Shown piece by piece: positions 18,925 to 64,000 of a DNA stretch of 64,000 nucleotides. Made by a program: the position numbers and the translations under genes. The notes under the pieces are model-generated. The model made no database searches. It saw nothing but the letters and a program-made list of their open reading frames with translations, and was not told where the DNA came from. The stretch's first letter is position 1; the number at the start of each line of letters is the position of its first letter. The stretch comes from an uncultured Thermoleophilia bacterium (lineage in GTDB: Bacteria; Actinomycetota; Thermoleophilia; UBA2241), in contig CAWIDR010000037.1 in assembly GCA_963834905.1 (NCBI GenBank), forward strand, positions 29,023 through 93,022, read 5' to 3'.

Positions 18925-18957
18925 GGCGCCGCTCAAGCTCGCCGACCCGGGAGGGTC

Positions 18958-32124: not shown

Positions 32125-32287
32125 CGGCTCGGATCTCCTTGACGAACGGCCGGGCTCGGCACGGCTTCCCGCGGGTGCGGGGCCGGGTCCCCGGAAGGTC
32201 GGCCCAGTCTACCGGATGCAGAACGCCGGGTTAACGTGTGCTCGTTGCGGGGAGCGGCGGGAGCGAGCGCCGCAGGCGCCCGCCGCC

Positions 32288-33117
32288 TCACACCACCAGC
32301 GGCCAGCAGGCTCACGCCGACGATCGTGCAGGCGATGCCGACCCACTGGTTCGGCTTGGGGCGCTCGTGAAGGAGCACGAAGCCGAGGACCACGGCAAAG
32401 GTGCCGAACTGCGTCGTGGTCACACCGGCGACCGTCGGCGGGCCAAGCGCGAACGTGATCGTGAGCAGGAGGACGCCAGACAACTCGAGGATGGCCGCTC
32501 CCACGGCGCGGACGCGCAACTCGCGCGGCACCGCGACGCTGCCGGTGAGCAACGCGACGGGGAGAGTGATCAGCAGGGACACCGAGCGCGAGATGGCCAC
32601 CTGCGAGAGCCAGGAGATGTCGCCGTAGGCGTAGCACAACATGGCGCCGGCGAAGAGGGCGCCGGCGGCGAGCGCCCAGGGCGCACCGCGCGCCGACCGG
32701 GCGCGGCCCTCGAACGATGTGAACACCGCCCCGAAGGCGCACAAGGCCGAGGGCGACCGCCAGCGGCACGGTGACAGGGGCGCCGAGCAGGATCACCGCC
32801 ACCGCCACGTACGCCCCCTGCAGTGCGGTGAGCGCAGATACGAGGCCAAGGTCGCCGACCTGGAGTCCATGCAGCAGACAGAAGAAGGCGCCGAAGTAGA
32901 GAGCGCCGGCGAGCGCCGCCAATCCGGCGCCGCGCCACTCGTCGCCCTGCGGGAGCCCATCGACGAGGAGCGCCACCGGCACGATGATCACCGCGCCCGT
33001 GACGAGCACCCAGACCATCTGCGTGAGTGGCCGCGTGCCGCGGGCGACGCGCTGCGAGAACATGTCGCTGGTCGCGTAGGAGAGGGAAGTCAGCAGGCCT
33101 GTGAGGACGGTGAGCAC
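32288..33117 (-). CDS. EamA/DMT-family transporter (frame break near 32750; 3' end uncertain)
   Basis: GTG 33117. Ten-TM DMT pattern split between ORF 32209..33513 (N-terminal half) and ORF 31917..32744 (C-terminal half). Read literally, the C-terminal frame runs 200 nt into the aminotransferase gene. A stop at 32288 in the third frame follows the last TM, so another indel is likely. Confidence 0.6.
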
Positions 33118-34009: not shown

Positions 34010-34959
34010 CTAGCTGATCGCGAGCAGCGTGCAGGCCACGCAGGTGCAGGCCACGCCCACGTACTGCAGCCGCGACAGCCGCTCGTGCAGCACGAGGTAG
34101 CCCAGCAGGACCGCCATCGTCCCGCCCTGGGCGATGACCACCGAGGCGACCGCCAGCGGTCCGATCGCGATCGCCGCGGCGAAGAGGACGAATGCCGAAG
34201 CGTCGAACACGCCGGCGATCCCGCAGCGCCCGGCGAGCCGGCGCGGAAGCCGGAGCCCGCCGAGCAGCAGGGCCACCGGCAGCAGCACCAGCATGGTGCC
34301 CAGCCGGCCGAAGGCGGCGATGGCCACCGGATGCAGGGCGCCGGCCTCCGCCAGCAGCAGGATGACCACCGCGAACAGCGCCGACGACAGCAGGGCCCAG
34401 CCGGCTCCGGACGTGCCGCGGGCGCGACGAACGGGAGCGGCGGGCTCCACGCTCGCGACGGCAGCCGGCGCCCCCGGGGCGACGGCGCCGGCAGCGCCGC
34501 GATCGCCTCCGGCGCGCCCAGACCGAACACCTCCTCGGCCGGCGCCTTCTCGACGGAGGCGAGCAGGCCGCCGGCCACGGCGAGCGGCAGGCCGACCATC
34601 GCCGGCGTGGAGAGCGCCTCGCCGCCGATGATCGCGATCACCGCGACGATGCCGCCGGCCAGCGACGCCAGCGGCGTGACGATCGAGAGGTTGCCGGTGA
34701 CGAGGCCGCGGAGCAGACACGCCAGGGCCGCGGCCTCGCACAGGCCACCGGCCATGGCGAAGGCGACGGCCCGCCACTCGGCGGCTCCGGCGGGCGGACC
34801 GTACAGCACCAGGGCGAGCGGCAGAAGGATGAGGAGTCCCACGGCCATGGACCAGGACATCGCGGTCCAGAGGGCCACGGCGCGCACGACCTTGACCATG
34901 AGGAAGTCGTGGAGCGCGTAGCCGAGGGCCGAGCCCAGGCCGAGGACGACGGTGAGCAT
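34010..34959 (-). CDS. EamA/DMT-family transporter (frame break near 34480)
   Basis: N-terminal EamA half in ORF 33952..34959 and C-terminal half (GWALLSSALFAVVILLL...LLAIS*) in ORF 34010..35044. Confidence 0.7.
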
Positions 34960-35091
34960 GCGCGTACTCTACTCGACCCGCTTTGGCGCCGAAGGGTCCG
35001 AGTCCCGCGGACAGGGCGCCATGGCCGGGCCGGACCGTACGCACGAGGGCGCGCCCGGTCGGCAGACCCGGCGCGCCCCGTCAGCTCGTGG

Positions 35092-36308
35092 TCAGTCGTC
35101 GGTGCGGCAGACCGTGAGGTCGGCGAAGTTGCGCGGCGCCAGGCCCTGGTGCTTCTCGGCGATGGTGTCGGCGAGCGCGTCGAGGCGCGCGTAGTCGTTC
35201 GTCGCGCGGCATGCCCTTGGCCAGCACCGGCTCGAGGAACTCGACCTTGAGCTTGGGCATCATGCCGGCCAGCGTCTCGACGGTCTTGCCGGCCCAGCCG
35301 TAGCTGCCGATCACGGTCGCGTACTTGGTGCGCGGCTTCAGCGCGTTCGCGAGCACGGCCGCGTACGGCGCCAGCGGATGCGGCCCGGTGAGCACCGTCG
35401 GCGTACCGAGGACGATGGTGCCGGCGTGCACCAGCGAGCTGGCGAGCTCGCCGGCGTCCAGCGTCGTGAGGTCGAAGCGCTCGATCGCGACGCCGCGGTT
35501 CGTGAGGGCCGCGGTGAGGTGGTCGACCATCTTGAGCGTGCTGTCGTGCATGCTGACGAACGGCAGGCAGACGATGTTCTGCGGCTCGCCGCCGGCCCAG
35601 TCCCGGTAGGCCTCGATGATGAACGCCGGGGTCGTCGTAGACGGGTCCGTGGCTCGGCCCGATGAACCTGATCGGGTACTGCGTCACCTTCTCGATGTTC
35701 TTCAGCACCTGGCTGCCGAACGGCATCATGATCTCGGCGTAGTAGCGCTTGGCGCCGTCGTAGACCTCGTGCTTGTCGGCGAAGACGTCGTTGGTGGCGT
35801 AGTGCGAGCCGAAGAAGTCGCAGCTGAAGAGGATCTGGTCCTCGCCCAGCCAGGTGCTCATCGTCTCGGGCCAGTGCACCCACGGCGTGAACAGGAACGT
35901 GAGCGTCTTGTCTCCGAGGCTCAGCGTGTCGCCGTCGGCCACGACCTGGAAGCGCGCGTCGTCCACGTGCAGGTGGTCGATCAGCATCGCCCTGCGCCTT
36001 CTCGTTGCAGACGATCGGTCAGATCGGGGTAGCGCTGCGAGGAGCTGCGGCGTGCAGCCCGAGTGGTCCTGCTCCACGTGGTTGATGACCAGGTAGTCGG
36101 GCGCCGGCAGCTCGTCGAGCTGCGCCATGAGCGTCGAACACCGGGCCGGGTCGCAGGTGTCGACCATCACGTTCTTCTCACTGCCCACGACGAAGTACGC
36201 GTTGTAGCTCGTGCCGTGGGGAAGGGGGATGAGCGCGTCGAACAGCCGGCGGTCCCAGTCGACGGCGCCGATGAGGTAGACGTTCTCGCGGATGATGCGT
36301 GGCTTCAT
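35092..36308 (-). CDS. FprA-type flavodiiron protein (MBL-like diiron domain + flavodoxin domain; frame breaks near 35200, 35625 and a scrambled stretch at 35985-36035)
   Basis: ATG 36308 after GAGG. YLIGAVDWDRRLFD, SYNAYFV, NHVEQDHSG and FSCDFFGSH (diiron site). Flavodoxin part in ORF 35081..35551 (IVLGTPTVLTGPHP, IGSYGWAG). Natural end DLTVCRTDD* at 35092. Confidence 0.8.
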
Positions 36309-36696
36309 GGTCACCTCGCGTGAGGTCGTGGCAAAGCGTTCTCGCCTCCGAGTATAACCACGCGCTGACGGGGTTCAGGGCCACGAGCGCGTCCGGATGG
36401 CGGAAATGGCCGGGGTCTGTGTGGACAGCGTATCGGGACTCGCCTCCTCGCTCCGCCGAGACCACGCGACCGGCGTGGTCGCGGGCCTCGACACGACGAG
36501 GTGACAGCAGACGGGCCTGCGCCCGACCCGACGGACTGTCCACGGTCCGGCTCACTCAAACGCCCAGGGGCACTGTCCCGCCTTGGAGGCTGGTACTAGG
36601 ATGCGGGGAGACGACGTCGAGGCCGAGGGAGGGCGTCGCCATGTCGAGGGGCGTGGCGGGGATGGTCTGCTCGTGTGAGTCATACGGGGCGGTGTG

Positions 36697-39600
36697 ATGC
36701 ACGCCTGCCCCGCCTGTAGCGCCGCCACACCAGAGGGCGCCCGATTCTGCCCCGCCTGCGGCAGGCCTCTGATCGTCCCGGAGACGCCCGCCGAGCGTAA
36801 GGTCGTCACGACCTTGTTCTGCGACCTCGTCGGCTTCACCCGACTGTCTGAGAACGCCGACCCGGAGGACGTCGACAGCATGCTGCGGCAGTACGCGGCC
36901 GCGGCCAGCCACGCCGTGGAGATCCACGGCGGCGTCGTGGAGAAGTTCGTCGGTGACGGGGTCGTCGCGGTGTTCGGCGTGCCGGCGGCCCACGAAGACG
37001 ATGCGGAGCGGGCCATCCACGCCGCGCTCCGCCTCTGCCGGGATGTGAGTGCCGTGACCGGTCCCGACGGAGCTCCCGTCAGCGTCCGTATCGGCATCAA
37101 CACCGGTGAAGCCCTCGCGCGTCTGGACCTTGCCCCCACCACCGGCGACGGCTTCCTCGCCGGCGACGCCGTCAACACGGCGGCACGCCTTCAGTCCGCC
37201 GCCCCGCCGGGCGGTATCCTGGTCGGTCCAGCTACCTATGCACTCACGAGCAGGCTGTTCCGTTTTGAGGAGCAGGAGCCCGTTGCGCTCAAGGGCAAGG
37301 CCGAGCCGCTACCTGTGTGGCTTGTCCTGGCGCCGGTGTCCCGCACTGGGGCCGACCACGCATCCTTCTCCTCGATCTTCGTGGGCCGGCGGGACGAGAT
37401 CGCCCGCCTCGAAGCGCTCCTCGAACAAGCGATCCGGCGACGGTCCGCGGGCGTGGCGCTCATCTCGGGCGAGCCGGGGATAGGCAAGTCACGCCTTCTG
37501 GCGGAGTTCTTCAGGCTGCTCGACCAACGGTCGCACGACGTCACGTGGCGACAGGGTCGGTGCCTCCCCTACGGCGAGGGCATCGCGTTCTGGCCCTTGG
37601 GCGAGATCGTCAAAGCACAGGCGGGCATCTTGGATACAGACAGTGTCGCGGCGACCGAACGCAAGCTCGCCAGGTCCCTGACCGAGCGCTCCGACACGAA
37701 GTGGATCCAGGAAAGGCTGCGACCCCTCGTGGGGCTCAGGGGGGCCGCCGCGCCGCAAGAGGAGAGCTTCTCGGCCTGGAACAGGTTCATCGAACAACTC
37801 GCGGCGCGGCGCCCGCTAATCCTGGTGGTGGAAGACCTGCATTGGGCGGACGACGCCATGCTGACGTTCCTGCGGCAGTTCACGGCAAGGGACTGGGGTG
37901 TCCCCCTCCTGCTCCTCATGACGGCCCGGACACACTTCTTCCAGGACGAGACCACCTTCGTCTCGTCGCTCCCCGCGGAAGGGCTCATCGCGCTGCCGCC
38001 ACTCGCCGCGGCGCAGATCAAGGAACTGCTGGCCGATCTGGTGGACGATCAGACGGTACTCCACCAGCTGGCTGCGTCGATCCTGGAGCGCTGTGGCGGT
38101 AATCCGCTGTACGCCGAGGAGTTGCTTCGACTGCTGAGAGAGCGCGGACTCCTCTCGACACCGGGGGACCTGGGGCAAGAAGTCGCCGCCGCGCTTCCAC
38201 AATCACTGCAGGCGGTCATCGCCGCCCGCATCGACGCGCTGCCCCCCCGTCTCAAGGAGTACCTCACCAACGCCGCCGTGGTGGGCCGGCGTTTCTGGGA
38301 CGGCGCCGTCGCGGCGCTTGCCGGCGACGGCGAGGCGCTCGATCAGGGCCTGCGGCGCCTCGCCGCGGCCGAACTCATACGCGTCGCGCCCAGCTCTTCG
38401 ATGTCGGGTCAGCGCGAGTACGTCTTCTGGCACGCGCTGACACGCGATGTGGCCTACAGTCAACTGACGCGTGGCCTGAGGGCAGAGAAGCACGAGCGCG
38501 TCGCCCGCTGGCTTGAAGAGCAGACCGGTGAGCGGGCAGAGGACCTGGCCGACGTGCTCGCTCATCATTACGTCACGGCTCTGGAGATGCGCTGCGAGCT
38601 CAAGGACGAAGCCGGGGCCGACGCGCTCCGCCGGCCTGCGGCAAGCGCACTGCACCTCGCCGGGAGCCGCGCGCTCGGCCTCAACGCGGGGGCCGCGGAG
38701 CGTCATCTTGCCCGGGCCGCGGCCCTTCTGCCCAAAGGAGCCGAGGACCGACCGAAGCTGCTCTTCGCGTGGGGCGAGGCCCTGATCGAGAGCAGCGAGC
38801 TTACGAAGGCGATCACCGCCCTGGAGGAGGGCATCCGTGAGGCCCGCGAGATGGGCGACGACAGAAGTGCGGCGATGGCCCTGCCACGGCTCTCATACGC
38901 GCATTGGCTGCGAGGTGACGCCAAGGGCTTGGAGGGGTCGGCGGAAGCCGTGGCGCTGCTGGAGAGGTACGGGCCGACACAGGAGCTCGTGAGGGCGCTG
39001 GAGAGCTGGGCCGCTGACTTGGCGCACGTCCCCGCATGTCTCCCTGCCATCGCGGCCTCCGATCGGGCCATCGCCATGGCTGCGGAGCTCGACCTCCCGG
39101 AGAGGCCCGCGGGCTTCGCCTCTCGCGGCATGGCTCACTGCAGCCTGGGGAACGCCGACGGGCTGACCGATCTGAAGTCCTCGGTCGACTTGGCTCTTGC
39201 GCTCGACGAGCCCCGCTGGGCCATCGCCTGCCGTTGCAATCTGGGCGACAACCTCTGCATCTTCGAGGGGCCCCGGGCCGCCCGCACCGTCCACACTGCC
39301 GCGCTGGACTCGTCGGTGCGCTTCGGCGGTCAACTGGCGAGCTGCTACTGCCACGAGGTGCTGTTCATCGACCTGGTGATCAGCGGCGAGTGGGACGAAG
39401 CGTTGCACGGAATGGCCGCTCTCGACCGCGAGCTCAACGGCCACGGGGACGCGTGGGATCTCGTGCACTTCAGGGCGACTGCCGCCTTGCTGCTGGCGCT
39501 CACGGGCGGTTCGGCTGCAGCCGAGTGCTATGCGCGTTTCGCAGAGACGAGCAGTCGCACGACACCTATGCTGGGCACCCGTGCCGCCGCGCTCGCGGGG

Positions 39601-40095
39601 CTCGCACAGGTGCTGTTCGCCTCGGGCCACCCCGAAGGCGCCGGGCGGTGGCTCCGCGACTGCGAGCGGCTGTCTGGCGACGTGCGCGGGCACTTCGACT
39701 ACGTCCTACGCCTACCCCACATGGTCCGTCTCGCCCACGAACTGGGAGACCCAACGCTCGCCGAGCGACTCATCGCGCGGGTGCCGCGTGGTTCCCGGTA
39801 TGCGGACCTGGCGCTGGCCGGGGCAGAAGCGCGTGGCGCCGAGACACGGTCGGAAGTACAGACTGCAGCAGCGCTCTGGCAAACGACGGCAGAGGGGTGG
39901 AACGACCTTGGAGTGCCGTTCGAGCACGCGCAGGCGTTGCTCGGCTACGGCCGGTGCCTGTTGCGGGCCGACGATCGGTCACGGGCGGAGACCGCCCTCC
40001 TGCAGGCCGACGCGGTGTTCGAGCGCCTCGGCGCCAAGCCCGTCCGTGAGGAGGTACGGAGACTCCTCGAGTTCACGCGGGGCGAGCCTCGATAG
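36697..40095 (+). CDS. STAND signalling protein: zinc-ribbon + class III adenylate/guanylate cyclase + AAA(P-loop) ATPase + TPR-like C-terminal region
   Basis: - Uninterrupted frame of about 1132 aa.
- Zinc ribbon: CPAC...CPAC.
- Cyclase core: VTTLFCDLVGFT, EKFVGDGVVAVFG, RIGINTGEA, GDAVNTAARL.
- Walker A: GEPGIGKSRL.
- Walker B-like: LILVVEDLHWAD.
- Long helical-repeat tail, with no C-terminal LuxR HTH seen. Confidence 0.85.
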   Translation: MHACPACSAATPEGARFCPACGRPLIVPETPAERKVVTTLFCDLVGFTRLSENADPEDVDSMLRQYAAAASHAVEIHGGVVEKFVGDGVVAVFGVPAAHEDDAERAIHAALRLCRDVSAVTGPDGAPVSVRIGINTGEALARLDLAPTTGDGFLAGDAVNTAARLQSAAPPGGILVGPATYALTSRLFRFEEQEPVALKGKAEPLPVWLVLAPVSRTGADHASFSSIFVGRRDEIARLEALLEQAIRRRSAGVALISGEPGIGKSRLLAEFFRLLDQRSHDVTWRQGRCLPYGEGIAFWPLGEIVKAQAGILDTDSVAATERKLARSLTERSDTKWIQERLRPLVGLRGAAAPQEESFSAWNRFIEQLAARRPLILVVEDLHWADDAMLTFLRQFTARDWGVPLLLLMTARTHFFQDETTFVSSLPAEGLIALPPLAAAQIKELLADLVDDQTVLHQLAASILERCGGNPLYAEELLRLLRERGLLSTPGDLGQEVAAALPQSLQAVIAARIDALPPRLKEYLTNAAVVGRRFWDGAVAALAGDGEALDQGLRRLAAAELIRVAPSSSMSGQREYVFWHALTRDVAYSQLTRGLRAEKHERVARWLEEQTGERAEDLADVLAHHYVTALEMRCELKDEAGADALRRPAASALHLAGSRALGLNAGAAERHLARAAALLPKGAEDRPKLLFAWGEALIESSELTKAITALEEGIREAREMGDDRSAAMALPRLSYAHWLRGDAKGLEGSAEAVALLERYGPTQELVRALESWAADLAHVPACLPAIAASDRAIAMAAELDLPERPAGFASRGMAHCSLGNADGLTDLKSSVDLALALDEPRWAIACRCNLGDNLCIFEGPRAARTVHTAALDSSVRFGGQLASCYCHEVLFIDLVISGEWDEALHGMAALDRELNGHGDAWDLVHFRATAALLLALTGGSAAAECYARFAETSSRTTPMLGTRAAALAGLAQVLFASGHPEGAGRWLRDCERLSGDVRGHFDYVLRLPHMVRLAHELGDPTLAERLIARVPRGSRYADLALAGAEARGAETRSEVQTAAALWQTTAEGWNDLGVPFEHAQALLGYGRCLLRADDRSRAETALLQADAVFERLGAKPVREEVRRLLEFTRGEPR

Positions 40096-52358: not shown

Positions 52359-53923
52359 TCAGCGTACGGAGACCGCGAAGCGGTCGATGCCGCGGCCGCC
52401 GTCCCCGTCCGTCACGCACAGCGTGACGGTGCGGCGGCGGCCGCGCGGCCCCGCGAAGCGGTGCGACAGCAGGAACGTCTTGTCGGCGCGGAGACGCAGC
52501 GCCCGCCGCGCCGTCCCGTCGCCGTAGCTGACCCAGCCCTTCCAGACGTCCGCGCCCGGATCGCGGAACGAACAGGTCCGCGTGAGGCGCGCGCCGGCGC
52601 GGACCCTCCCATCCGGGCCGCCGGCGACCTTGGGAGCGACGTTGCGCACGGTGACGGCCACCGTCGCCGCCGCCGTTCGCGCCAGCTCGTTCGTGACCGC
52701 GACCCGCACGGCGTGGCGCCCGTCGTCCGGCCAGGTCCGGCCGAGCGAGAAGGCGCCGCTCTGGCCCTCGCCGCCGGCCGTGAGCGCCAGCGGCTCGTCG
52801 CCCGCGCCGCCCGCGTAGTCCACCGTCGCGGTCCAGAGCGCGCCGGCTCCGTCGAAGAACCCGCCGGCGCACGTCCAGCGCGCCCCCTCGCGCACAGTCG
52901 CCGTCGCCGGCAGGCTGACGGAGAAGGCGCCGGACTGCAGTGCGCGCGAGTCGACCACCTCGAAGTCGCGCCCGGTCACGCCGTCCAGGGCGTGCAGCGC
53001 CTCATCGTTCCAGCGCGAGTCGGGCGCTCCGCCCACGTACCAGTCGGAGCCGTTGTCGGCGACCATCATCCCGTACTTCTTCAGCCCCCTGAGGATCGTC
53101 TGGACCAGCGGCGGGAACCGGCTGATGTCGAAGTCCGCCTTGAGCCGCACGCGCAGCCCCATCGGCGGCAGGTCCGTGTCGGTGGAGGAGCTCGCGATAG
53201 TGCGTCGCCGGATAGACGTAGGCGCGCTGGGTGTCGGCGACGGTGAAGCGCAGCGCGTGGTCGAGCACGCCCTCGCCGACGATCTCGTCGTACCGCGCGA
53301 GGCCGGGCAGGATCGGGAGGCCGGCCGCGTCCGCCGAGGTCCAGCCGTCCGGGCGCAGCGCGTTGCTCGTGAGGTCGAAGACCGCGCCGGAGCCGGCCTT
53401 CCACGAGCCGTCGGCCTGCTTGTGCGCGTCGTACACCTCATAGAGCTTCTCGTTGTCGGCGTCGAGCACGAGCACGTGACGGTCGCCGTCGGCGTAGGGT
53501 CCGCCGGCGCCCTCGACGGGCGCGTCGGGCGGGATCGGGTAGGGGCCGGGATCGCTCTCGTCGGGGTAGGAGAACGAGATCGGCACCTTGGGCTGCGTGC
53601 CCGGCACGACCACGTAGGGGATGCCGATGCGCGCGCCCTCCCACACCGTCCCGAAGTCCGGGTGCAAGCGGGTCGCAGGGTTCATGTGGGCGATGTAGGC
53701 AGCGGAGTTCGGATCCAGCGGCAGCGTGTCGACCGGCGTGTTCCAGGGATTGTCCGCCGGCAGGAGCAGGAACGGGATGGCGGCGCCGGCGCCGTACGCG
53801 GCCGCGCGCGCCGGCGCCGCGAGCGACCGCGACGAGCAGGAGCGCCGCCGCGAGCACGCAGACGAGCGCGGCGGCGTCCTCAGCGCCGCGCGCGCCGCAC
53901 GCGCGCGGCCGGCGCGGGCGCAT
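52359..53923 (-). CDS. secreted protein: conserved N-terminal domain of unknown function + two PKD/Ig-like repeats (frame breaks near 53197 and 53810)
   Basis: Signal peptide (MRPRRPRACG...LVCVLAAALLLVAVA). LPADNPWNTPVDTLPLDPNSAAYI, GIPYVVVPG, SADAAGLPILPGL, HALRFT, PPMGLRVRLKADFDIS and YGMMVADNGSDWY across three frames. C-terminal repeats carry V(D/S)Y(A/G)(G/D)G PKD-like motifs. Alternative start at 53962. Confidence 0.55.
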
Positions 53924-55547: not shown

Positions 55548-56228
55548 TCAGTCCAGCGAGATCATGCCCGTGCGGATGGCGTACTTGACCACCTCGGTCA
55601 CGTCGTGGAGGTCGAGCTTGCGCATCGCGTTGGCGCGGTGGCTGTCTACCGTCTTGCGGCTCAACCCCAGCCGCTCCGCGATCTCCTGGCTGGAGTTGCC
55701 GTCCGCGATCAGCCTGAGCACCTCACGCTCCCGGGCCGTGATGACCTCACCAGCGGCCGGAATGCCGCCACGCTCCCCGACCGTCACGCGCAGGTAGTCT
55801 CCGATGAGCGTGGCGGCGATCGGTGGATACAGGAACGACTCGCCGGCGTACACCTCATGGATGGCGCGCACCAGGTCTTCTGTCACCACGCGCTTGAGCA
55901 CGTAGCCGGACGCGCCGGCCTGGATGATCTGGACGACGTACTCGTGGTCGTCGTACATACTCAGGATGAGCACGCGCACGTGCGGATACTGCTCCCTGAT
56001 GAGCCGCGTGGCCTCGAGGCCATTCATGCGCGGCATCACGATGTCCATGATCACGACGTGCGGGCTTAGCCGGGGCACCAGCTCGAGAGCCTCCCGGCCG
56101 TCTCCCGCCTCCCCCACCACGGTGATGTCGGGCTCGCGGGCGAGCAGCGCGTGGACTCCCTCGCGGAGAATCGCGTGATCGTCGACGAGCAGTACCTTGA
56201 TCTGCTCCCGGCTCTTGGCGGCGTTCAT
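55548..56228 (-). CDS. NarL/LuxR-family response regulator
   Basis: ATG 56228 overlaps the HK stop (ATGA). Receiver (VLLVDDH...VIMDIVMP...) plus C-terminal LuxR HTH (REREVLRLIADGNSSQEIAERLGLSRKTVDSHR). Confidence 0.9.
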   Translation of the reverse strand: MNAAKSREQIKVLLVDDHAILREGVHALLAREPDITVVGEAGDGREALELVPRLSPHVVIMDIVMPRMNGLEATRLIREQYPHVRVLILSMYDDHEYVVQIIQAGASGYVLKRVVTEDLVRAIHEVYAGESFLYPPIAATLIGDYLRVTVGERGGIPAAGEVITAREREVLRLIADGNSSQEIAERLGLSRKTVDSHRANAMRKLDLHDVTEVVKYAIRTGMISLD

Positions 56229-57271
56229 GTCATCTCCTCGCCACGCTCTTCGCTGACCAACGGTACGACGACGTACAACCTGGTCCCCCTGCCGACCGCC
56301 GACTCGATGTTGAGCGAGCCTCCGGCGAGCTCGACGCGCTCCTTGATCGAGAGCAGACCGACGCCGAGGTGCCCGTTGCCGTGCAGAGCGGCGTCCTGGT
56401 CGAAGCCCGTGCCGTTGTCGATGACGGCCAGGCTGACGAACCCCGGCTTGGTGACCAGCCGCACGTGGATCTTCGTCGCGTCCGAGTGCTTCACGGCGTT
56501 GGCGAGTGCCTCCTGGGTCACTCGGTACAAGGCCGTCTCGACATCGCCGGGCAACCTGAGGCCGGCCTCGTCGAAGTCGGTGACGATCTCCGGCCCCGCG
56601 CCCTGGAGATGCGACTGGATGTACCAGCGCAGCGTTGGGACCAGGCCGAAGTCGTCGAGCATGACCGGTCGCAGATCGTAGACGATCAGCTTGATCTCGT
56701 CGATGGTGTGGGCGACCAGGGTCTTGCAGTTCAGCACCTGGGCGTGTGCGCCCGCCGCGTCGTTGTCCTGGAGGGCCTGATCGCACAGGTCGAGACGCAC
56801 GAGGGTCGCCGTGAGCGTCTGGCTGGTCTCGTCGTGGAGCTCGCGGCCTATGCGTCTGCGCTCCTCCTCCACACCACCGAGCTGCCGCTCGGCGTACGAG
56901 AGCGACTCGCGGCCGAGCCGATGACACATCGCGTTGAAGGAAGCCGTCAGGCGCCGGAGTCCGCCGTCTCCCCGGCCCTCCTCCAGGTGACAGTCGAGAC
57001 TCCCCTTGTGCATGGTGTCCATCGCCTGCTGGAGATCGGCAAGGACTCTGCCGGCCGCCCCCACGACGAGGAGGTTGGCGACGACGGTCACGGCCAGCCC
57101 GCCGACGACGAGGCCGACTGCGGCGGCGGCCCCGACGCCGCCCTCCCGAAGCTGCAGCGCGAGTGCCGCAGCGAGCACGGCGGCCACGGCGGCGGCGTTG
57201 ACGAGCACGACGCGACCCACCAGCGGGCGAGCCCCACGACGGGCCTTCGTCGCATTCTGGGGCGCGGTCAT
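56225..57271 (-). CDS. membrane sensor histidine kinase, HisKA_3 (NarX/DesK) type with HAMP-like linker
   Basis: ATG 57271 overlaps the upstream HK stop (ATGA). Two TM segments, RIGRELHDETSQ (H-box), and HATPase N/G boxes (EALANAVKHS, DNGTGF, GVGLLSIKER). Confidence 0.85.
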   Translation of the reverse strand: MTAPQNATKARRGARPLVGRVVLVNAAAVAAVLAAALALQLREGGVGAAAAVGLVVGGLAVTVVANLLVVGAAGRVLADLQQAMDTMHKGSLDCHLEEGRGDGGLRRLTASFNAMCHRLGRESLSYAERQLGGVEEERRRIGRELHDETSQTLTATLVRLDLCDQALQDNDAAGAHAQVLNCKTLVAHTIDEIKLIVYDLRPVMLDDFGLVPTLRWYIQSHLQGAGPEIVTDFDEAGLRLPGDVETALYRVTQEALANAVKHSDATKIHVRLVTKPGFVSLAVIDNGTGFDQDAALHGNGHLGVGLLSIKERVELAGGSLNIESAVGRGTRLYVVVPLVSEERGEEMT

Positions 57272-58569
57272 CCGGACGGGAGGTCGAGGGGCTGGGCGAG
57301 TTCGAAGGAGAACTCGGCCCACTTGCCGGGTTCGGAGCGCGCCCGGATACGCCCGTTGTGAAGCTGGAGGATCCGCCAGGAAGTGTAGAGACCCACGCCC
57401 GTCCCGCGTTTGTTCGCGCCGCCGGAGGACCGCAGCCGAGAGAACCGCTGGAACAGCCGGCCCCGATCCTCCGGCATGAAGCCCTCGCCCTCGTTCCACA
57501 CCGAGACCTGGAGACGGTCCTGCTCGCGCACGACGCGGAGACGGATCTCACCCTCGGGCTGCCCGTACTTGACGGCGTTGCCCAGGAGGTTGACGAGCAC
57601 GATCCGCAGCAGCGCAGGGTCGCACTCCGCCGTGGCGACGCTCGGCGGCAGGTCCAGAAGCAGGCGCATCTTCGCCTGGTCGATCTGGGCGCGCACGAGG
57701 TCGATGGACGGGGCGACGATCTCCTCCACGACGTCCACGCCGGTGCAGCGCACCAGTTCGAGCCCGCCCCCGTCGATGCGCGCCAGGTCGAGGTAGTCCT
57801 GGACGAGGCCCAGGAGGTACTGGCCCTTGGCGATCACGTGCTCCATCTTCTCCACCTGCTGCGGCTCCAGCGGACCCAGATAGCCGTCCGCGAGCAGTCG
57901 CGTATCGGTCACGAGCGAGGCGATGGGGTTCTTGATCTCATGGCTCACGAACGCGAGCATCTCCAGGTACGCGTGGTTCGCGGCGGTGAGCTGCTCGATG
58001 CGCCAGGCCTTCTCCACCGCCTGGCTCAGGCGCTCCGATATCGCCATCTCCAGCTGGACGTGATGTCCGTCGAACGCTCCCACACGGCACGAATCCCGGA
58101 ACAGGAAGCCGACGACACGACCTTCGACCACCAGGGGGCACGTGAGGCTCGAGCGCACGCCCTCCCTCACCAGCAGCCCCGACGAATGGCTGCTGGGGTG
58201 TTCGCGGGCATGCGCCTCAAGGTCATCGATGATGCGCGGCTCGCCGCACTTGATGACGTGCTCGAGCGAGCCGCCCTTGAGATCGCCGGCGTACCCCTTC
58301 GTCAGGAGCAGCGGCTCGTACTCGGCACGCGCGTAGTGAGCGAAGAGGCGCCGGCCGCTGTCGTCCACGAAAGCCAGGCCGATGCGGTCGCAAGGGATCA
58401 GCGCCCGAGTGCCCTCGAACAGGAAGTCGGCCAGGTCGTTGAGCGACTGTTTCGCGGCGACCTTCTGGTTGATCATGCGTAAGGTCGCGCGCTCGGAGTC
58501 GCTGATGCGCCGGCGAGCCGCGCGCCCGCGAAACGGGTCGAGGTAGCGAAGTGTGGACTGCAGGCTCAC
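57268..58569 (-). CDS. cytoplasmic GAF-domain sensor histidine kinase (HisKA type)
   Basis: GTG 58569 after GGAGGGG. GAF-like region (CDRIGLAFVDDSG...LTCPLVVEGRVVGFLF), H-box FVSHEIKNP and HATPase (NLLGNAVKYG, GTGVGLY). The longer listed ORF start (58809) lies in the low-GC regulatory region. Confidence 0.8.
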   Translation of the reverse strand: MSLQSTLRYLDPFRGRAARRRISDSERATLRMINQKVAAKQSLNDLADFLFEGTRALIPCDRIGLAFVDDSGRRLFAHYARAEYEPLLLTKGYAGDLKGGSLEHVIKCGEPRIIDDLEAHAREHPSSHSSGLLVREGVRSSLTCPLVVEGRVVGFLFRDSCRVGAFDGHHVQLEMAISERLSQAVEKAWRIEQLTAANHAYLEMLAFVSHEIKNPIASLVTDTRLLADGYLGPLEPQQVEKMEHVIAKGQYLLGLVQDYLDLARIDGGGLELVRCTGVDVVEEIVAPSIDLVRAQIDQAKMRLLLDLPPSVATAECDPALLRIVLVNLLGNAVKYGQPEGEIRLRVVREQDRLQVSVWNEGEGFMPEDRGRLFQRFSRLRSSGGANKRGTGVGLYTSWRILQLHNGRIRARSEPGKWAEFSFELAQPLDLPSG

Positions 58570-58620
58570 GGCCGCCCCTCCAGAGGACGACTGCCCCAAG
58601 CAAGATCCCAGGGGCAGCAC

Positions 58621-58636
58621 TAGGATATCCACCCTA
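58621..58636. promoter_or_regulatory. 16-bp operator-like motif copy 1: TAGGATATCCACCCTA
   Basis: Matches copy 2 at 13 of 16 positions, with imperfect inverted arms TAGGAT/ACCCTA. Its right arm doubles as a TAGGGT -10 hexamer for a minus-strand TTGGCA(58654..58659)-17-TAGGGT promoter upstream of the HK-HK-RR operon. Confidence 0.45.
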
Positions 58637-58776
58637 GACGGGAACTCATGTGATGCCAAGCACGATATCCCGCTCGGGCGGGTCTGGCAACACCGCCTGT
58701 GCCTCGAATGGAGCTCCCCGACGACGCGAGACGGGGTCCCGTCGACCCATCGCGAGCCTGAAGCAACACGAGCGTC

Positions 58777-58792
58777 TAGGGTGTCTACCCTA
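58777..58792. promoter_or_regulatory. 16-bp operator-like motif copy 2: TAGGGTGTCTACCCTA (perfect 6-4-6 palindrome)
   Basis: Read directly: TAGGGT and ACCCTA are exact reverse complements around GTCT. Lies in the about 350-bp lower-GC divergent region between the two-component operon and the Hdr/Qmo-like cluster. Confidence 0.5.
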
Positions 58793-58809
58793 TTTGTGCT
58801 CAGATTCAC

Positions 58810-58837
58810 TTGACGCCTTCTAGGGCCTCGCTAGTAT
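58810..58837 (+). promoter_or_regulatory. candidate sigma-A-type promoter of the Hdr/Qmo-like cluster (TTGACG-16-TAGTAT)
   Basis: -35 TTGACG at 58810..58815 and -10 TAGTAT at 58832..58837, about 80 nt upstream of ATG 58917. The -10 sits inside a third, degenerate motif-like element (TAGTATCCACTA, 58832..58843). Confidence 0.4.
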
Positions 58838-58916
58838 CCACTACAGGGTGTTCTGACCGACGACGGGGGCGCTCCACGGGATGGCCCGGGCCGCGCTCGC
58901 GGTGATGGAGGATCTT

Positions 58917-60724
58917 ATGAGGATCGGGGTCTACATCTGCCGGGTGGGTGCGGAGAGCGGCGCCAACCTGGAGTCCGTGGGTCACTACGTGGCGAACCTG
59001 CCGCAGGTGGAGTCGGTGCGGTCGCTCGGCCTCCTGCCGCGGCTCGACCCGGAGGCGCTCGCCGACGAGATCGCCGCCGACCAGCTGGACAGGATCGTCA
59101 TCGCCGGCGACTCACCCGGCTTCTTCAAGCCGGCCTTCACCCGGGCCATGTCCCTGGCCGGGCGCGAGCCGGACGAAGTGCGGCTCGCGTCCTTCCGCGA
59201 GCATGGCGTGAGCGGCGACGGCGCGACGGAGCGCGCCAAGGCGATCGCCGCCTGCGCCGTCTACGGCGTCCCGTTCACGCTGGCGGCGCGGCCGAGCGAC
59301 GCGAAGTGGACCTCGGCCACGCTCGTCATCGGCGGCGGCATCGCCGGCATCCAGGCGGCGCTCGAGATCGCCGATGGCGGCAAGAAAGTGTACCTCGTCG
59401 AGCGCACCGGCACGATCGGCGGCCACATGGCCATGTTCGACAAGACCTTCCCCACCCTCGACTGCGCCGCCTGCATCCTGACGCCCAAGATGGTCGCCGT
59501 CGGGCAGCACCCGATGATCGAGATGCTCACCTACTCCGAGGTCGAGTCCATCAGCGGCGTGCCCGGCTCGTTCCGCGTCACGGTGCTCCGTCATGCGCGG
59601 CGCGTCGACGAGGACGCCTGCGTGGCCTGCAACATCTGCAGCGACGCGTGCCCGGTCAGGGTCCCGAGCGAGTTCGACGCCGGAATCGCCGAGCGCAAGG
59701 CGATCTACATCCCCTTCCCCCAGGCGGTGCCCAACGCGTACCTCGTCGACGAGGCGTCGTGCACGTACGTGCAGACCAACGGGAAGAAGTGCGGCGTCTG
59801 CGCCAAGAAGTGCCCCAAGGAGTGCATCGACCTCGACGCCCGCGGCGACGTGCTGCAACTCGACGTCGGCAGCGTCATCGTCGCCACCGGCTACGAGACG
59901 CTCGACGCCTCGCGGCTCGAGCGCTACGGCTACGGGGTGCAGCCCAACGTGCTCACCGCCCTCGAGTTCGAGCGGCTGACCAACGCATCGGGTCCCACGG
60001 GCGGGCAGGATCGTCACCAAGTCCTTGCGCCACAACAAGCGCAAGAAGATCGACGAGTGGGTGTTCGACCCCGAGGGCGAAGTCGCCGCGCAGCGTCGCG
60101 ATCATCCACTGCGTCGGCTCCCGGGACTCGAACTACAACGCCTACTGTTCGCGCGTGTGCTGCATGTACTCGCTGAAGTTCGCGCACCTGGTGCGTGAGA
60201 AGCTGCCGGACGCCGCGTGCTACGAGTTCTACATCGACATGCGCGCGTTCGGTAAGGGCTACGAGGCGTTCTTCGAGCGCATCCGGGAGGAGGGGACGTT
60301 CATCGTCCGCGGCCGGACGGCGTCGGTGACCGACCATGACGGCCAGATGGTCGTGAAGGGCGAGGACATCCTCAGCGACAGCGTCGTGGAGTTCCCGGTC
60401 GACATGGTCCTGCTCGCCGTCGGGCTCGTGCCGGCGGACCGCTCGGACGAGCTGGCGCGCATGCTCGGCGTGCCGCGGGACGAGGACGGGTGGTTCACCG
60501 AGGCCGACTACAACGGCGATCCCACCGGGACCGAGCGCGGGGGCGTGTACGTCGCCGGCGTGTGCCAGGGCCCGAAGGACATCCCCGACACGGTGGCGCA
60601 GGCGTCCGCGGTGGCAGCCCGGGCGCTCGAGGGCGCCATGACCGGACGCGGGCTCCAGAGTCTCGCGAGCCTGAGTCTCTCCGACATCGAGGCCCGCGCA
60701 AAGAGCCTCGTCCCGGCGCCCTAG
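58917..60724 (+). CDS. HdrA/QmoA-like FAD- and FeS-containing oxidoreductase, copy 1 (frame breaks near 60008 and 60085)
   Basis: ATG 58917 after [41 protein letters not shown], ferredoxin CVACNICSDACP...CGVCAKKCP, FERL, then IIHCVGSRD...[12 protein letters not shown] and GVYVAGVCQGPKDIPDTV in the frame of ORF 59306..60724. The N-terminal about 130-aa domain is Cys-poor. Confidence 0.8.
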
Positions 60725-60733
60725 GAGGTGGCG

Positions 60734-61897
60734 ATGGCGATCAGGGCCAACCCCAAACTGATCGAAGAACTCGAGCCTTACGGGGCCGAGGACGTGATGA
60801 AGTGCTACCACTGCGGCAACTGCTCCGCGGTGTGTCCCTTCTCCGCGGATCCCTACGTCTTCCCTCGCAAGCCGATGCGCTATCTGCAGATGGGCCTCGA
60901 GGAGAAGCTCGAGGGCCAGCTCGACCCCTGGCTCTGCTACTACTGCGGCGAGTGCTCCGACCAGTGCCCGCGCGACGCCGAGCCGGGCGAGACGATGATG
61001 AGCCTGCGGCGGTGGCTCACGGCGCGCTACGACTGGACGGGGATATCGCGCCTGTTCTACCGCTCGTGGCGCTGGGAGCTCGGCGCCATCCTCCTGGTCG
61101 CCGTGCTCACGGCGATCGCTTCACGCTGTTCGGGCTGTCGCAGGGCAGCCTTGCCAGCTACGACGGGCCCAACGCCTTCCTGCCCAGCTCGAGCATCCAC
61201 ATCTTCGACTGGGCGCTCGCCATGGTGCTGCTGGCGTTCCTGCTCAGCAACGCGGCCCGCATGTGGTGGTTCACCATGGGCCGCGACAAGACCTTGCACC
61301 CGAGCGTGGGCAGCTACCTCAGCAGTCTCTGGATGCTGCCCGCCCACTTCATCACGCAGGCGCGCTACAGCCAGTGCGAGCGCAAGCGCCCGTGGCTGAC
61401 CCACCTCGTGCTCATGCTGAGCTACGTGACCATGCTGGTGCTGATCATGTTCTTCCTCGCGGAGATGGCGAGCGGGCCCGCCATCGACTGGCGGGTGCAC
61501 GTGCTCGGCTATCTCGCCACGGCCGGCCTCGTGGTCTCCACGATCCTCTTCCTGCGCAACCGCGTGAAGAAGTCGGCGACCGCAGTACCGGCACTCGCAC
61601 GAGTCCGACTGGATCTTCCTCGTCCTGATCCTGATGGTCGCGCTGACCGGGATCCTGCAGCACATCCTGCACCGCAGCGGTCTCGACGTGGCCGCCAACG
61701 TCACCTACATCGTGCACCTCTCGCTGGTCGTCCCGATGCTCGCCCTCGAGGTGCCCTTCAGCAAGTGGTCGCACCTGGCATACCGCCCGCTGGCCATCTA
61801 CCTCGCGAGGTCAGGGCGACCGCCCTGGCCCGCTCGCACCAGGGCGAGGCGGCGCAGCGCGGCGCCGAACCGGCCACGCCCGCTCCGTGCGGCCTGA
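60734..61897 (+). CDS. QmoC-like fusion: HdrC-type 2x[4Fe-4S] domain + HdrE/DsrM/NarI-type heme-b membrane domain (frame breaks near 61115 and 61580; C-terminus uncertain)
   Basis: ATG 60734 after AGGAGG. CYHCGNCSAVCP and CYYCGECSDQCP. Six predicted TM segments across three frames with conserved His (HIFDW, HLVLML, ILQHILH) and PFSKWSHLAYRP, typical of DsrM/HmeC/QmoC membrane subunits. Confidence 0.7.
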
Positions 61898-61910
61898 GGA
61901 GGTGGGCGCC

Positions 61911-63634
61911 ATGGCTGAGCCGCGAACGGGCGTGTTCATCTGCAACTGCGGCACCAACATCGCCAAGGTGGTCGACTGCGACGCGGTCGCGGAAGCCGCG
62001 TCGTCCATGCCCGGCGTCGTGGTGTCGCGCTCGTACAAGTACATGTGCTCCAACCCGGGGCAGGAGATGATCGCCCAGGACATCGCCGACCACGAGCTCG
62101 AGCGCGTGGTGGTCGCCGCCTGCAGCCCCCGCATGCACGAGCCCACGTTCCGCCGCGCCGCGGAGACGGCGGGCCTCAACCCCTATCTCGTCGAGATGGC
62201 CAACATCCGCGAGCAGTGCAGCTGGGTGCACGACGACGGGGTCGCGGCGACGGAGAAGGCCGAGGACCTGGTGCGCGCGGCCGTCCTGCGCGTCGCGCGC
62301 CACGAGCCGCTGGAGCGCCTCTCCGTCGACATGTGCCCCAACACGCTGGTCATCGGCGGCGGCATCGCCGGGCACCACGGCCGCACTCGAGCTGGCCGAC
62401 GCGGGCAAGCTCGTCTACCTGGTCGAGCGCCAGCCGGGCCTCGGCGGCAACGTCGCCCGCGTCGATCTCACGGCCCCGTACCTGGACTCGGCGCGCGACA
62501 TGCTCACCGACCGGATCACCCGGGTCGTCGAACACCCGGACATCGACGTGATGGTGAACAGCGAGCTCAAGCGCCTGGACGGCTTCGTCGGCAACTTCAA
62601 GGCCACGATCGCCGTCACGGGCCGGACGGCGCCGAGGAGGAGCGGCAGGTCGACGTCGGCAGCGTCATCGTCTGCACCGGCTACCGCGAGTTCGACGCCG
62701 CGCGCGCGACGCACCTCGGATACGGCAAGCTGCCCAACGTCATCACGTCCTTCGAGTTCGAGCGCATGCTCCGGCCGGGACGGATCGAGACCAAGGAGGC
62801 AAGCTGCCGCAGTACGTCGCCGTCATCCACTGCGTCGGCAGCCGCAGCGAGGAGTTCCACGGCTACTGCTCTCGCGTCTGCTGCATGACCGCCCTCAAGT
62901 ACGCGCACGAGGTCAAGTCGGCCCTGCCCGGCAGCTACGTCTCCGACGTCTACGTGGACATGCACGCCTTCGGCAAGGGATGCGAGGACTTCTACCGCCG
63001 CAGCGCCGAGGTCAAGACGCTGTTCCTCATGTACGGCAAGGGCGAGCACCCGGTGGTCAGGCGAGCCGACCCCGGCGACGACTGCGAGATGCTCATCACG
63101 GTCGACGAGCAGCTCTCCGGAGAGACCATCGAACTGCCCGCCGACCTCATCATCCTCATGGTCGGCATGGAGCCGCGCGAGGACGCCGACTCGGTCGCGC
63201 ACCTCGTCAACATCAGCCAGGACAAGGACGGCTGGTTCATCGAGAGCCACCCCAAGCTGGACCCGGTGGCGACCACGACCGACGGCGTCTACATCGCCGG
63301 CGCCTGCCAGGCACCGAAGGACATCCCGGACTCGGTCGCGCAGGCGCGCGCCGCGGCAGGCCGGATCCTCGGCAAGATCTCCAAGGGCAAGCTCGAGATC
63401 GACGCCATGTTCGCCGAGGTCGACGAGGACCGCTGCTCGGGCTGCCGCATGTGCAACGAGATCTGTCCGTACTCCGCCATCGAGTTCGACGCGGTCGAGC
63501 GCCGCAGTCACGTGATCAGCGCGTTGTGCAAAGCGTGCGGCGCCTGCGTCGCCACCTGTCCGTCGGCGGCGATCAAGGCCAGGCACTTCACCGACGAGCA
63601 GATCTTCGCCGAGATAGCGGGGGTGCTGGGATGA
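61911..63634 (+). CDS. HdrA/QmoB-like FAD- and FeS-containing oxidoreductase, copy 2 (frame breaks near 62372, 62620 and 62805)
   Basis: ATG 61911 after GAGGAGG. Cys-rich HdrA N-domain ([10 protein letters not shown]...YKYMCS...[10 protein letters not shown]...REQCSWVH), VIGGGIAG(T)[15 protein letters not shown]...[30 protein letters not shown] and C-terminal ferredoxin [12 protein letters not shown]...[12 protein letters not shown]. Confidence 0.8.
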
Positions 63635-64000
63635 CGTTCGAACCCAAGATCGTCGGCTTTCTGTGCAACTGGTGCTCCTACTCCGGGGCCGACCTCGCCG
63701 GGACCAGTCGCATCCACTACGCGCCCAACGTCCGCGTGATCCGCGTGATGTGCTCGGCGCGCATCGACCCGACCTTCGTCATCAAGGCGCTCGCCGAAGG
63801 AGCCGACGGCGTCCTCGTGTGCGGCTGCCACCCCGGCGACTGCCACTACTCCGAGGGCAACTACAAGACGATGCGGCGGATGCCGCTGCTCAAACGCATG
63901 CTCGCCGACTTCGGCATCGAGGACGAGCGCGTCCGGCTCGAGTGGGTGAGCGCCAGCGAGGGCAAACGCTTCGCCGACATCGTCGACGACATGACCGAGC
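63631..64000 (+). CDS. MvhD-like (methyl-viologen-reducing hydrogenase delta subunit family) FeS protein, 3' end outside window
   Basis: ATG 63631 overlaps the upstream stop (ATGA). [11 protein letters not shown]...[12 protein letters not shown]...[17 protein letters not shown] is the MvhD/FlpD signature. Confidence 0.8.

Follow-up and report, generated by a model that had tools for sequence, protein, structure and literature searches.

A QmoC- and HdrA-like gene module in a Thermoleophilia genome as the probable first half of a membrane-anchored Mvh-type [NiFe]-hydrogenase operon

A stretch of 64,000 nucleotides from an uncultured Thermoleophilia bacterium (GenBank assembly GCA_963834905.1, contig CAWIDR010000037.1, positions 29,023 to 93,022; called the window here) ends in four linked genes (58917–64000, plus strand), which encode two HdrA-like flavoproteins (A1 and A2), a QmoC-like membrane subunit (C) between them and an MvhD-like protein. 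The region probably forms the 5' part of an operon that encodes a membrane-anchored [NiFe]-hydrogenase of the Mvh type, which would bifurcate electrons, with QmoC and quinone replacing HdrBC and heterodisulfide. The complete operon is predicted to read A1, QmoC-like, A2, MvhD, MvhG, MvhA and maturation protease, with hypFCDE following in some loci. It is also quite possible, if short of probable, that the product belongs to an unrecognised class of membrane-bound, flavin-based bifurcating [NiFe]-hydrogenase, passing electrons from H2 to menaquinone and ferredoxin at the same time via an asymmetric HdrA heterodimer and a QmoC-type cytochrome b.

The four genes are co-directional and closely packed, with intergenic gaps of 9 and 13 nucleotides. 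Gene 1 (A1, 58917–60724, plus strand) and gene 3 (A2, 61911–63634, plus strand) match HdrA/HdrA2 with expect values (E) of 5e-167 and 6e-187, respectively (NCBIfam HdrA2), and gene 2 (C, 60734–61897, plus strand) is matched end to end by NCBIfam qmoC (E = 4e-59). Gene 4 (mvhD, 63631–64000, plus strand) encodes the [2Fe-2S] subunit of Mvh-type hydrogenases (PF02662 FlpD/MvhD, E = 1e-53; VhuD, E = 2e-36); only its first 123 codons precede the end of the window, which cuts the gene, and the orthologue in the related locus L001 has 144 amino acids. Genes 3 and 4 share an ATGA overlap at 63631–63634, and a second such start/stop overlap joins two neighbouring kinase genes at 57268–57271. Both are consistent with translational coupling in the respective operons. 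Functional assignments are based throughout on frame-corrected genes and intact orthologues; the loci of relatives carry the labels L001–L090.

The initial annotation, made from the DNA sequence without database searches, had described four tightly linked genes at essentially these coordinates: an HdrA-like protein with few cysteines left in its N-terminal domain, a fusion of an HdrC-type di-cluster ferredoxin with a heme-b-type domain of six transmembrane helices, a second HdrA-like protein with a cysteine-rich N-domain and a C-terminal ferredoxin, and a separate MvhD-like gene with an ATGA overlap. Domain matches and alignments agree with each of these descriptions. The proposal that MvhD had been split off QmoB was not retained, and the gene is better seen as the first of an mvhDGA set.

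The hydrogenase partner is found in the relatives. On the plus strand of L001–L003, A1 (603 amino acids), the QmoC-like protein (388, 91% identical to the window copy), A2 (574) and MvhD (144) are followed by a [NiFe] small subunit (321), a large subunit (488), a HycI-type protease and HypF, HypC, HypD and HypE, while the minus strand carries genes for a GAF-domain histidine kinase (HK), a second HK and a response regulator (RR). L089 likewise continues with mvhD-mvhG-mvhA-hycI, and five contigs recovered with an exact 30-mer from the window end in a scan of metagenome contigs (L086–L090) all proceed to MvhD-MvhG-MvhA; hyp genes are found in L001–L003, L086 and L090. The genes mvhG and mvhA lie directly downstream in L001–L007 and L086–L090 and adjoin the core in 47 of 80 genome loci, and every relative that extends far enough has mvhD-mvhG-mvhA-protease at this position. 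The large subunit of the relatives contains both [NiFe] ligand motifs, RxCGxCxxxH and DPCxxCxxH, and its best matches are MvhA/VhuA proteins (PDB 9sw2_F, 4.5e-114; 5odc_F, 6e-110; NCBIfam VhuA, 354 bits); the small subunit and MvhD match NCBIfam VhuG and VhuD. By synteny, the partner of A1-C-A2 in this genome would be an Mvh-type (group 3c-like) [NiFe]-hydrogenase that oxidises or evolves H2. A gene for a CCG-domain protein (HdrB) is not present in the operon of L001–L003, and in L004/L005 it occurs only in a separate, divergent hdrCBA-mvhDGA operon. The initial annotation had proposed a quinone-linked complex and left its partner reaction open; the quinone link is supported, and the relatives supply an Mvh-type [NiFe]-hydrogenase as the partner. 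Of the downstream genes that it had suggested looking for, those seen in the relatives encode a hydrogenase, and a canonical Flx-Hdr or sHdr locus does not follow downstream.

The two HdrA-like proteins complement each other. Aligned to HdrA of the solved Mvh-Hdr complex (5ODC chain A, 5odc_A), A1 covers residues 5–562 (E = 1e-139) and keeps the thioredoxin-reductase fold with its FAD domain, the HA4 motif (CxGxRD...CSxxCC), the equivalents of Cys194 and Cys197 and the inserted 2x[4Fe-4S] ferredoxin domain, but it has lost four of the five N-domain cysteines and the C-terminal ferredoxin. A2 aligns to residues 1–234 and 318–649 and keeps the Cys-rich N-domain, the FAD domain, HA4 and the C-terminal 2x[4Fe-4S] ferredoxin, whereas the inserted ferredoxin is absent and Ser/Asp occupy the positions of Cys194/197. 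This pattern was counted in 53 A2 and 57 A1 orthologues from the loci. Four N-domain cysteines are present in 53/53 A2 proteins and lost in A1, while cysteines at positions 194/197 occur in 57/57 A1 and 0/53 A2 proteins. The eight cysteines of the C-terminal ferredoxin are conserved in 52–53 of 53 A2 sequences, a domain that A1 lacks, and the eight of the inserted ferredoxin in all 57 A1 sequences, a domain absent from A2. HA4 is found in every member of both sets (53/53 and 57/57).

A complete HdrA, with FAD and every iron–sulfur (FeS) domain, is therefore found only in A1 and A2 together, and the reciprocal state of their N-domains, first noticed in the window, is a conserved trait of the 53–57 orthologues. 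In the solved complex, Cys197 of one HdrA completes the N-terminal cluster of the other; electrons bound for ferredoxin pass this cluster on their way to the inserted ferredoxin domain, and those from MvhD reach the flavin by way of the C-terminal one (Chadwick et al., PMC9012536). The same study inferred that tandem HdrA paralogues with complementary losses are obligate heterodimers. Because the cysteine and domain losses of A1 and A2 are strictly reciprocal and match this rule, there is strong comparative evidence that both proteins form an asymmetric obligate heterodimer, predicted to contain a single input branch, a single branch to ferredoxin and a single interface cluster, in addition to the membrane branch.

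The QmoC-like protein combines two CxxCxxCxxxCP motifs with a membrane domain of about six helices that contains PFSKWSHLAYRP. Its N-terminal domain matches HdrC of solved complexes (PDB 7bkb_C, 1.9e-13; 5odc_C), while sequence searches with the membrane domain matched no solved structure. The protein has more than 3000 homologues, typically intact and about 381 amino acids long, the nearest of which come from metagenome-assembled genomes (MAGs) of Thermoleophilia, in agreement with the actinobacterial origin suggested initially. Among 68 family representatives, down to 24% identity, the eight FeS cysteines are kept in 67–68 sequences, and the histidines H224 (68/68), H347 (67/68) and H328 (66/68) are nearly invariant; D292, R277, K344 and R351 are conserved as well. 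The window copy retains these three histidines and H156. Loss of heme-ligating histidines after frame correction, named beforehand as a finding that would speak against a membrane-coupled redox module, was not observed. In an AlphaFold (AF2) model, the membrane domain has predicted local distance difference test (pLDDT) values of 80–97, and NarI was the sole recurring fold among weak Foldseek matches (probability 0.44–0.80, template-modelling score 0.36–0.46). Quinols reduce the two haems b of QmoC itself (PMC3333476), and a haem-b, quinone-interacting function of the QmoC-like subunit is plausible because of this homology.

The operon is not confined to the Thermoleophilia. More than 580 species-representative genomes contain a relative of the QmoC-like protein, as judged by a genome scan with patterns built from closer sequences, since the 68-sequence alignment was too diverse for this purpose. 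The best 80 species-level loci, all from MAGs, were analysed for their architecture by local tblastn mapping. In 47 of them, from at least seven phyla, the A1-C-A2 core lies next to mvhDGA. The order A1-C-A2-MvhD-G-A occurs in 32 loci, plus L059 on inspection, from Bacteroidota, Acidobacteriota, Actinomycetota, Latescibacterota, Chrysiogenota and Ignavibacteriota, and the order MvhD-G-A-A1-C-A2 in 13 loci of Bacteroidota, plus L052 on inspection. Six loci from Acidobacteriota, Myxococcota and Geobacteraceae have MvhD-A1-C-A2 without an adjacent hydrogenase. Distant HdrA-like genes lie upstream, with C as the last gene, in 16 loci from Actinomycetota, Myxococcota and Chloroflexota, and the remaining loci are cut by contig ends. 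The order A1-C-A2 is fixed in the first three arrangements (types I–III). Thus, the non-canonical A-C-B order noted initially does differ from that of Qmo, but a large family shares it as a constant trait, and it is not the oddity of one genome; likewise, the window does stem from an actinobacterial genome, but the system is not peculiar to Actinobacteria.

In one variant, L019 (4683–12879), genes for MvhD, two FeS proteins and a NAD(P)H/FAD/[2Fe-2S] protein come before the core, and no hydrogenase is present. This Flx-like composition, also seen in L022, L025, L027, L032 and L044, points to a form of the complex that runs on NAD(P)H. On the evidence of the architecture counts and the L019 variant, the A1-C-A2 core is one that takes interchangeable input modules by its gene content, as HdrABC does with MvhADG or FlxABCD.

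Other Actinomycetota have clusters that end in a QmoC-like protein of about 65% identity. In L008 (3664–11158), the cluster starts with TusA and continues with an HdrL-like NAD(P)H flavoprotein (972 amino acids), an HdrA-like protein (579 amino acids), DsrE2 and the QmoC-like protein, and L012, L014, L017 and L024 have a similar gene order. This composition also led to the rejection of canonical Qmo as an explanation for the loci in A-B-C order, with distant HdrA-like genes and C in last position, and such a cluster may possibly be a sulfur-carrier-linked module without hydrogenase. L004–L006 share the core of the window (71–74% identity in QmoC) and contain, on the minus strand at about 1–5714, a second, canonical hdrC-hdrB-hdrA-mvhD-mvhG-mvhA operon that is divergent from the QmoC-type operon. 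HK and RR genes and a copy of a palindrome, described below, are located between the two operons, and the respective genomes may have soluble and membrane-linked Mvh systems that are co-regulated. Surveys file such enzymes under "group 3c, heterodisulfide-reductase-linked". The combination of a QmoC-like subunit, an HdrA pair and mvhDGA in one operon was not described in the full-text literature searched, although earlier mention in reviews is possible, and the operon family is apparently both widespread and undescribed.

By analogy with the Mvh-Hdr structure, the following route may be proposed. H2 would be oxidised at MvhA, the gene for which is present in the relatives and predicted by synteny in this genome, and electrons would pass via the MvhG clusters and the [2Fe-2S] cluster of MvhD to the C-terminal ferredoxin of A2 and the flavin of the A1-A2 heterodimer. 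In the high-potential branch, one electron would proceed from the flavin via HA4 and the HdrC-like 2x[4Fe-4S] domain of the QmoC-like subunit to haem(s) b and menaquinone. In the low-potential branch, taken by the other electron, a single interface cluster, formed by the N-domain cysteines of A2 and one cysteine of A1, would connect the flavin to the inserted ferredoxin of A1 and finally to ferredoxin (Fd). With menaquinone abbreviated as MK, the net reaction would be 2 H2 + MK + Fd(ox) -> MKH2 + Fd(red) + 2 H+, reversible in principle, which is the reaction of methanogen MvhADG-HdrABC with quinone instead of heterodisulfide. Its energetics would resemble those of the methanogen reaction, because menaquinone has a potential of about -75 mV and heterodisulfide of about -140 mV (general knowledge and PMC3333476). 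A precedent for quinone and ferredoxin as an acceptor pair is FixABCX, as cited in PMC6085437. The conserved ligands and domains support the suggestion, already made for the window alone, that the complex may be electron-bifurcating or confurcating.

The window copy has a defect of its own. Genes 1–3 are not intact open reading frames (ORFs), and nine 1-bp indels break their frames: two insertions in gene 1 (~60006 and ~60081), four indels in gene 2 (61120, 61579, ~61808 and 61881), which also has one in-frame 3-bp deletion, and three in gene 3 (~62373, 62616 and ~62804). They were located by a frame plot of the G+C content at third codon positions (GC3) together with a frame hidden Markov model (HMM), which gave seven or more internal frame switches in genes 1–3, followed by alignment to two intact relatives. 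L001 is 87.6% identical to the window in nucleotide sequence over 57279–64000 (~6.7 kb to the window end) and L089 is 91.9% identical, and the same nine indels show up against L089. All nine are unique to the window sequence and absent from both relatives. In the relatives' frame, the ratios of nonsynonymous to synonymous substitution rates (dN/dS) of genes 1–4 are 0.087, 0.182, 0.061 and 0.034, compared with 0.119 for the intact neighbouring GAF kinase, and the corrected frames of the four genes contain zero in-frame stop codons. Because of the low dN/dS, the lack of in-frame stops and the intact relatives, the indels resemble errors in the sequence or changes of very recent date, and most likely they are sequence or assembly errors in a sequence of patchy quality. 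Old pseudogene decay, which was also considered, is not supported by dN/dS and the indel comparison with two relatives.

Similar irregularities are found elsewhere. About 24 candidate same-strand frame switches without a nearby stop codon are distributed in patches over 59 kb of the window (~3173, 3793, 8870–9234, 10094, 13787, 15118–15901, 18890–19344, 24813, 25612, 27189, 28919–29540, 32232–32743, 34415–35622 and 53181), which suggests scattered single-base indels in the sequence. The site at ~53181 breaks an uncharacterised protein (52359–53685, minus strand) in two, and the long stretches at 36.7–40.1 kb and 43–52 kb look clean. The idea that the frameshifts are a window-wide artefact only is partly supported, since they are present elsewhere but denser in the module, and the neighbours compared with L001 are clean.

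Several points weigh against the proposed bifurcating hydrogenase. The window ends inside mvhD, so that mvhG and mvhA of this genome are placed by synteny only, and the hydrogenase type was assigned by best matches. Only three transmembrane histidines are conserved family-wide, H156 being present in 34 of 68 sequences, albeit in at least 90% of the window's subfamily, and a Foldseek search of PDB with the model of the QmoC-like protein gave no match at E <= 0.001; its haem count and quinone site are thus predicted features. As far as the sequence shows, either of the two flavins could bifurcate, and either HdrA-like subunit could dock QmoC. Biochemistry for any family member was not found in the searched literature, and bifurcation, the identities of the acceptors and the direction of the reaction are all things that we infer. 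Finally, the nine frameshifts of the window copy occur at ~4x the density of the rest of the window, with none in ~4.3 kb of neighbouring genes compared with L001, and a very recent inactivation of the locus in the window's strain is possible. That the locus of this genome is a dead remnant, pseudogenised by nine window-specific 1-bp indels within 4.7 kb, nevertheless seems unlikely: dN/dS is 0.03–0.18 (0.12 for the kinase neighbour), nonsense codons are absent from the corrected frames, and nine independent inactivating indels without a sign of relaxed selection would need an extremely recent decay. The patchy occurrence of further frameshift candidates (~53181, 8.9–9.2 kb, 27–30 kb) fits an uneven assembly quality.

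Other functions have to be weighed against the one preferred here. Electron transfer from H2 to menaquinone is strongly exergonic by established redox potentials and needs no coupling, no gene for ferredoxin or another acceptor is conserved in the operon, and many carriers belong to soil and peat phyla with respiratory lifestyles. All of this would suit a plain, non-bifurcating H2:menaquinone oxidoreductase of a respiratory chain, in which the HdrA-like pair is a wire from Mvh to the QmoC-type quinone site and ferredoxin plays no part. We consider this not very likely, as the eight inserted-ferredoxin cysteines of A1 and the ligands of the interface cluster are kept in 53–57 of 53–57 orthologues from at least seven phyla, and the same elements form the ferredoxin-reducing branch of the solved Mvh-Hdr complex (PMC9012536); unused ligands would be expected to decay, as in non-bifurcating relatives such as the 349-residue 6tjr_A, which is without these domains. 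The complex could also operate in reverse and evolve H2 by confurcation from menaquinol and reduced ferredoxin, as a disposal of reductant in hypoxia or fermentation, possibly with energy conserved by quinol oxidation at the outer membrane face. Group 3 [NiFe]-hydrogenases are regarded as bidirectional (10.1101/197269, PMC8092238), confurcation has been proposed for Qmo with hydrogenase among the possible partners (Ramos et al., PMC3333476), and control by a GAF-domain sensor kinase fits a conditional role linked to redox state or hypoxia. This direction is improbable on thermodynamic grounds: when averaged, the potentials of MKH2 (~-75 mV) and Fd(red) (~-400 to -450 mV) come out well above that of H+/H2 at 1 atm, so that, by a calculation from standard potentials, H2 could be evolved only where its partial pressure is very low. 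A canonical QmoABC that serves adenosine 5'-phosphosulfate (APS) reductase in dissimilatory sulfur metabolism and is merely rearranged here would explain the two HdrA-like subunits with an HdrC/cytochrome-b fusion, the end-to-end alignment of the qmoC model and the label "QmoC" that many homologues carry in JGI annotation. It is very improbable, given a qmoC score of 203 bits against a cutoff of 300 bits, the failure to find apr, sat or dsr among ~30 window ORFs or in the 20-kb flanks of L001/L004, the order A-C-B with a separate MvhD, the inserted ferredoxin domain of A1 and a hydrogenase that adjoins the core in 47/80 loci, with maturation genes also in the operon.

The bifurcating hydrogenase proposed here can be placed among known systems by comparing its parts. 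It shares with MvhADG-HdrABC of methanogens (5ODC, 8RVU, 9SW2) the same type of MvhD, and of MvhG and MvhA in the relatives, an HdrC-like 2x[4Fe-4S] domain and, jointly in A1 and A2, all elements of HdrA (FAD, HA4, the cluster of the N-domain and both ferredoxins, inserted and C-terminal). It differs in the lack of HdrB in the operon, in the fusion of the HdrC-like domain to a membrane cytochrome-b-like domain, in its predicted acceptor, quinone instead of CoM-S-S-CoB (the heterodisulfide of coenzymes M and B), in having two paralogues with reciprocal losses instead of an HdrA homodimer, and in its occurrence in non-methanogenic bacteria. QmoABC of sulfate reducers and sulfur oxidisers likewise has two HdrA-like subunits, a QmoC-type HdrC/HdrE fusion and an association with an MvhD module, and a third partner as well as bifurcation or confurcation have long been suspected for it (PMC3333476). 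The gene order A-C-B differs from qmoA-qmoB-qmoC, MvhD is encoded by its own gene and not fused to QmoB, a hydrogenase is present in the operon and the QmoC-like protein scores below the equivalog threshold of NF038018 (200.8 bits for the window copy and 202.8 bits for the intact P0001; cutoff 300; positions 4–358 of 360 aligned). Canonical QmoA is a shorter protein than A1, which has ~600 amino acids including its inserted ferredoxin domain. The link of QmoABC to aprBA/sat was not found among the ~30 window ORFs or in the gene tables of L001–L005, in line with the earlier remark that neither AprAB nor Dsr is in view. Canonical Qmo membership was rejected on the basis of the qmoC score, apr linkage, gene order and MvhD fusion.

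Tandem or fused HdrA paralogues of anaerobic methanotrophic (ANME) archaea and Moorella also have N-domain ligands in one copy, Cys197 in the other and complementary ferredoxins (PMC9012536). Here, by comparison, a qmoC-like gene separates the pair, the carriers are bacteria, and a membrane module and a hydrogenase are added. FlxABCD-HdrABC of Desulfovibrio represents a swap of the input module on an Hdr-type core. The L019 type resembles it in having an MvhD/FlxD-like protein, two FeS proteins and a NAD(P)H/FAD/[2Fe-2S] protein before the core, which ends in a QmoC-like membrane subunit instead of soluble HdrBC. FixABCX (cited in PMC6085437) has the same proposed acceptors, quinone at high and ferredoxin at low potential, but consists of unrelated Etf-type proteins, uses NADH instead of H2 as donor and has another membrane link. 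Judged by its components, the closest working likeness is MvhADG-HdrABC, yet without HdrB and ending in a membrane module, and the system is filed under neither Mvh-Hdr nor Qmo.

Divergent from the module is a two-component operon on the minus strand. A GAF-domain HK of the HisKA type (57268–58566), intact in comparison with L001, has Pfam GAF, HisKA and HATPase_c domains in the L001 orthologue. The membrane HK of the HisKA_3 type (56225–57271), for which the start at 57271 was inferred from an ATG that overlaps the upstream stop codon, matches an NCBIfam MctS/LiaS/UhpB-type core, has Pfam HisKA_3 and HATPase_c domains in its L001/L004 orthologues and shows no net frameshift relative to L001. 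The NarL/LuxR-type RR of 224 amino acids (55548–56222) matches NCBIfam MctR (E = 6e-59), MadR and NarL, and an orthologue is present at the same position in L001–L006 and L021. The adjacent GAF-HK/HK/RR operon had been pointed out initially, and it is conserved in the relatives, in actinobacterial-type loci. The 350-bp divergent intergenic region contains two palindromes, a candidate operator TAGGATATCCACCCTA (58621–58636) with one mismatch to TAGGGT-N4-ACCCTA and the perfect TAGGGTGTCTACCCTA (58777–58792), a candidate operator for the adjacent RR. The window holds no further match, and 0.01 would be expected by chance. If one mismatch at most is allowed, the palindrome is restricted to L001–L006 and L086 among 1.46 Mb of loci, always in intergenic DNA upstream of a hydrogenase operon and in loci with the adjacent HK/RR pair (L001 at 7884 and 8039; L004 at 5983, 7898 and 7999; L006 at 7978), and in L004/L005 it also precedes the second, canonical hdrCBA-mvhDGA operon. 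Just downstream of the palindromes, in a block conserved with L001, a promoter-like site consists of TTGACG, a 16-nt spacer and TAGTAT (58810–58837, plus strand); it is a consensus match only, and the search found two sites versus 0.1 expected in shuffles. Probably, the GAF-HK/HK/NarL-type system controls the operon via TAGGGT-N4-ACCCTA.

The surroundings differ between the window and L001. The brkB/nadA and rrf2/thiS/doxD genes lie at 3–1549 and 4417–6018 of the window, inverted and ~50 kb away from the two-component operon, and at 1715–3217 and 2–1614 of L001, where they adjoin that operon. This implies an inversion or a ~49-kb insertion between these genes and the two-component operon in the window's genome. 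At 36694–40095 (plus strand), an intact 1133-residue ORF has an adenylate/guanylate cyclase domain ahead of an AAA_16 ATPase domain and looks like a large signalling or regulatory protein.

The window copy itself is truncated and laden with frameshifts, and the interest lies in the family to which it points. Metagenomic surveys routinely label bacterial group 3c hydrogenases as "heterodisulfide-reductase-linked" even though their carriers make no CoM/CoB, which leaves their true acceptor to be identified; for Qmo, what QmoB does and which protein is the third partner have been debated since 2003–2012. An Mvh hydrogenase with a Qmo-like membrane module and without HdrB points to quinone as the high-potential acceptor, and the operon represents a genetically defined complex in which the coupling of hydrogenase and Qmo can be tested, with the conserved candidate operator and two-component system as a handle on its regulation. 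If the operon does encode a new bifurcating class, this would explain the role of many group 3c hydrogenases in non-methanogenic bacteria of at least seven phyla and provide a natural Qmo-type complex with the long-sought third partner in the same operon. If the complex bifurcates, respiring or facultative bacteria would gain low-potential ferredoxin from H2 at the cost of quinone reduction, and might spend it on fixing CO2 or N2 or on reductive biosynthesis. Such an enzyme would matter for the cycling of H2 in soils, peat and sediments, habitats in which the carrier phyla abound.

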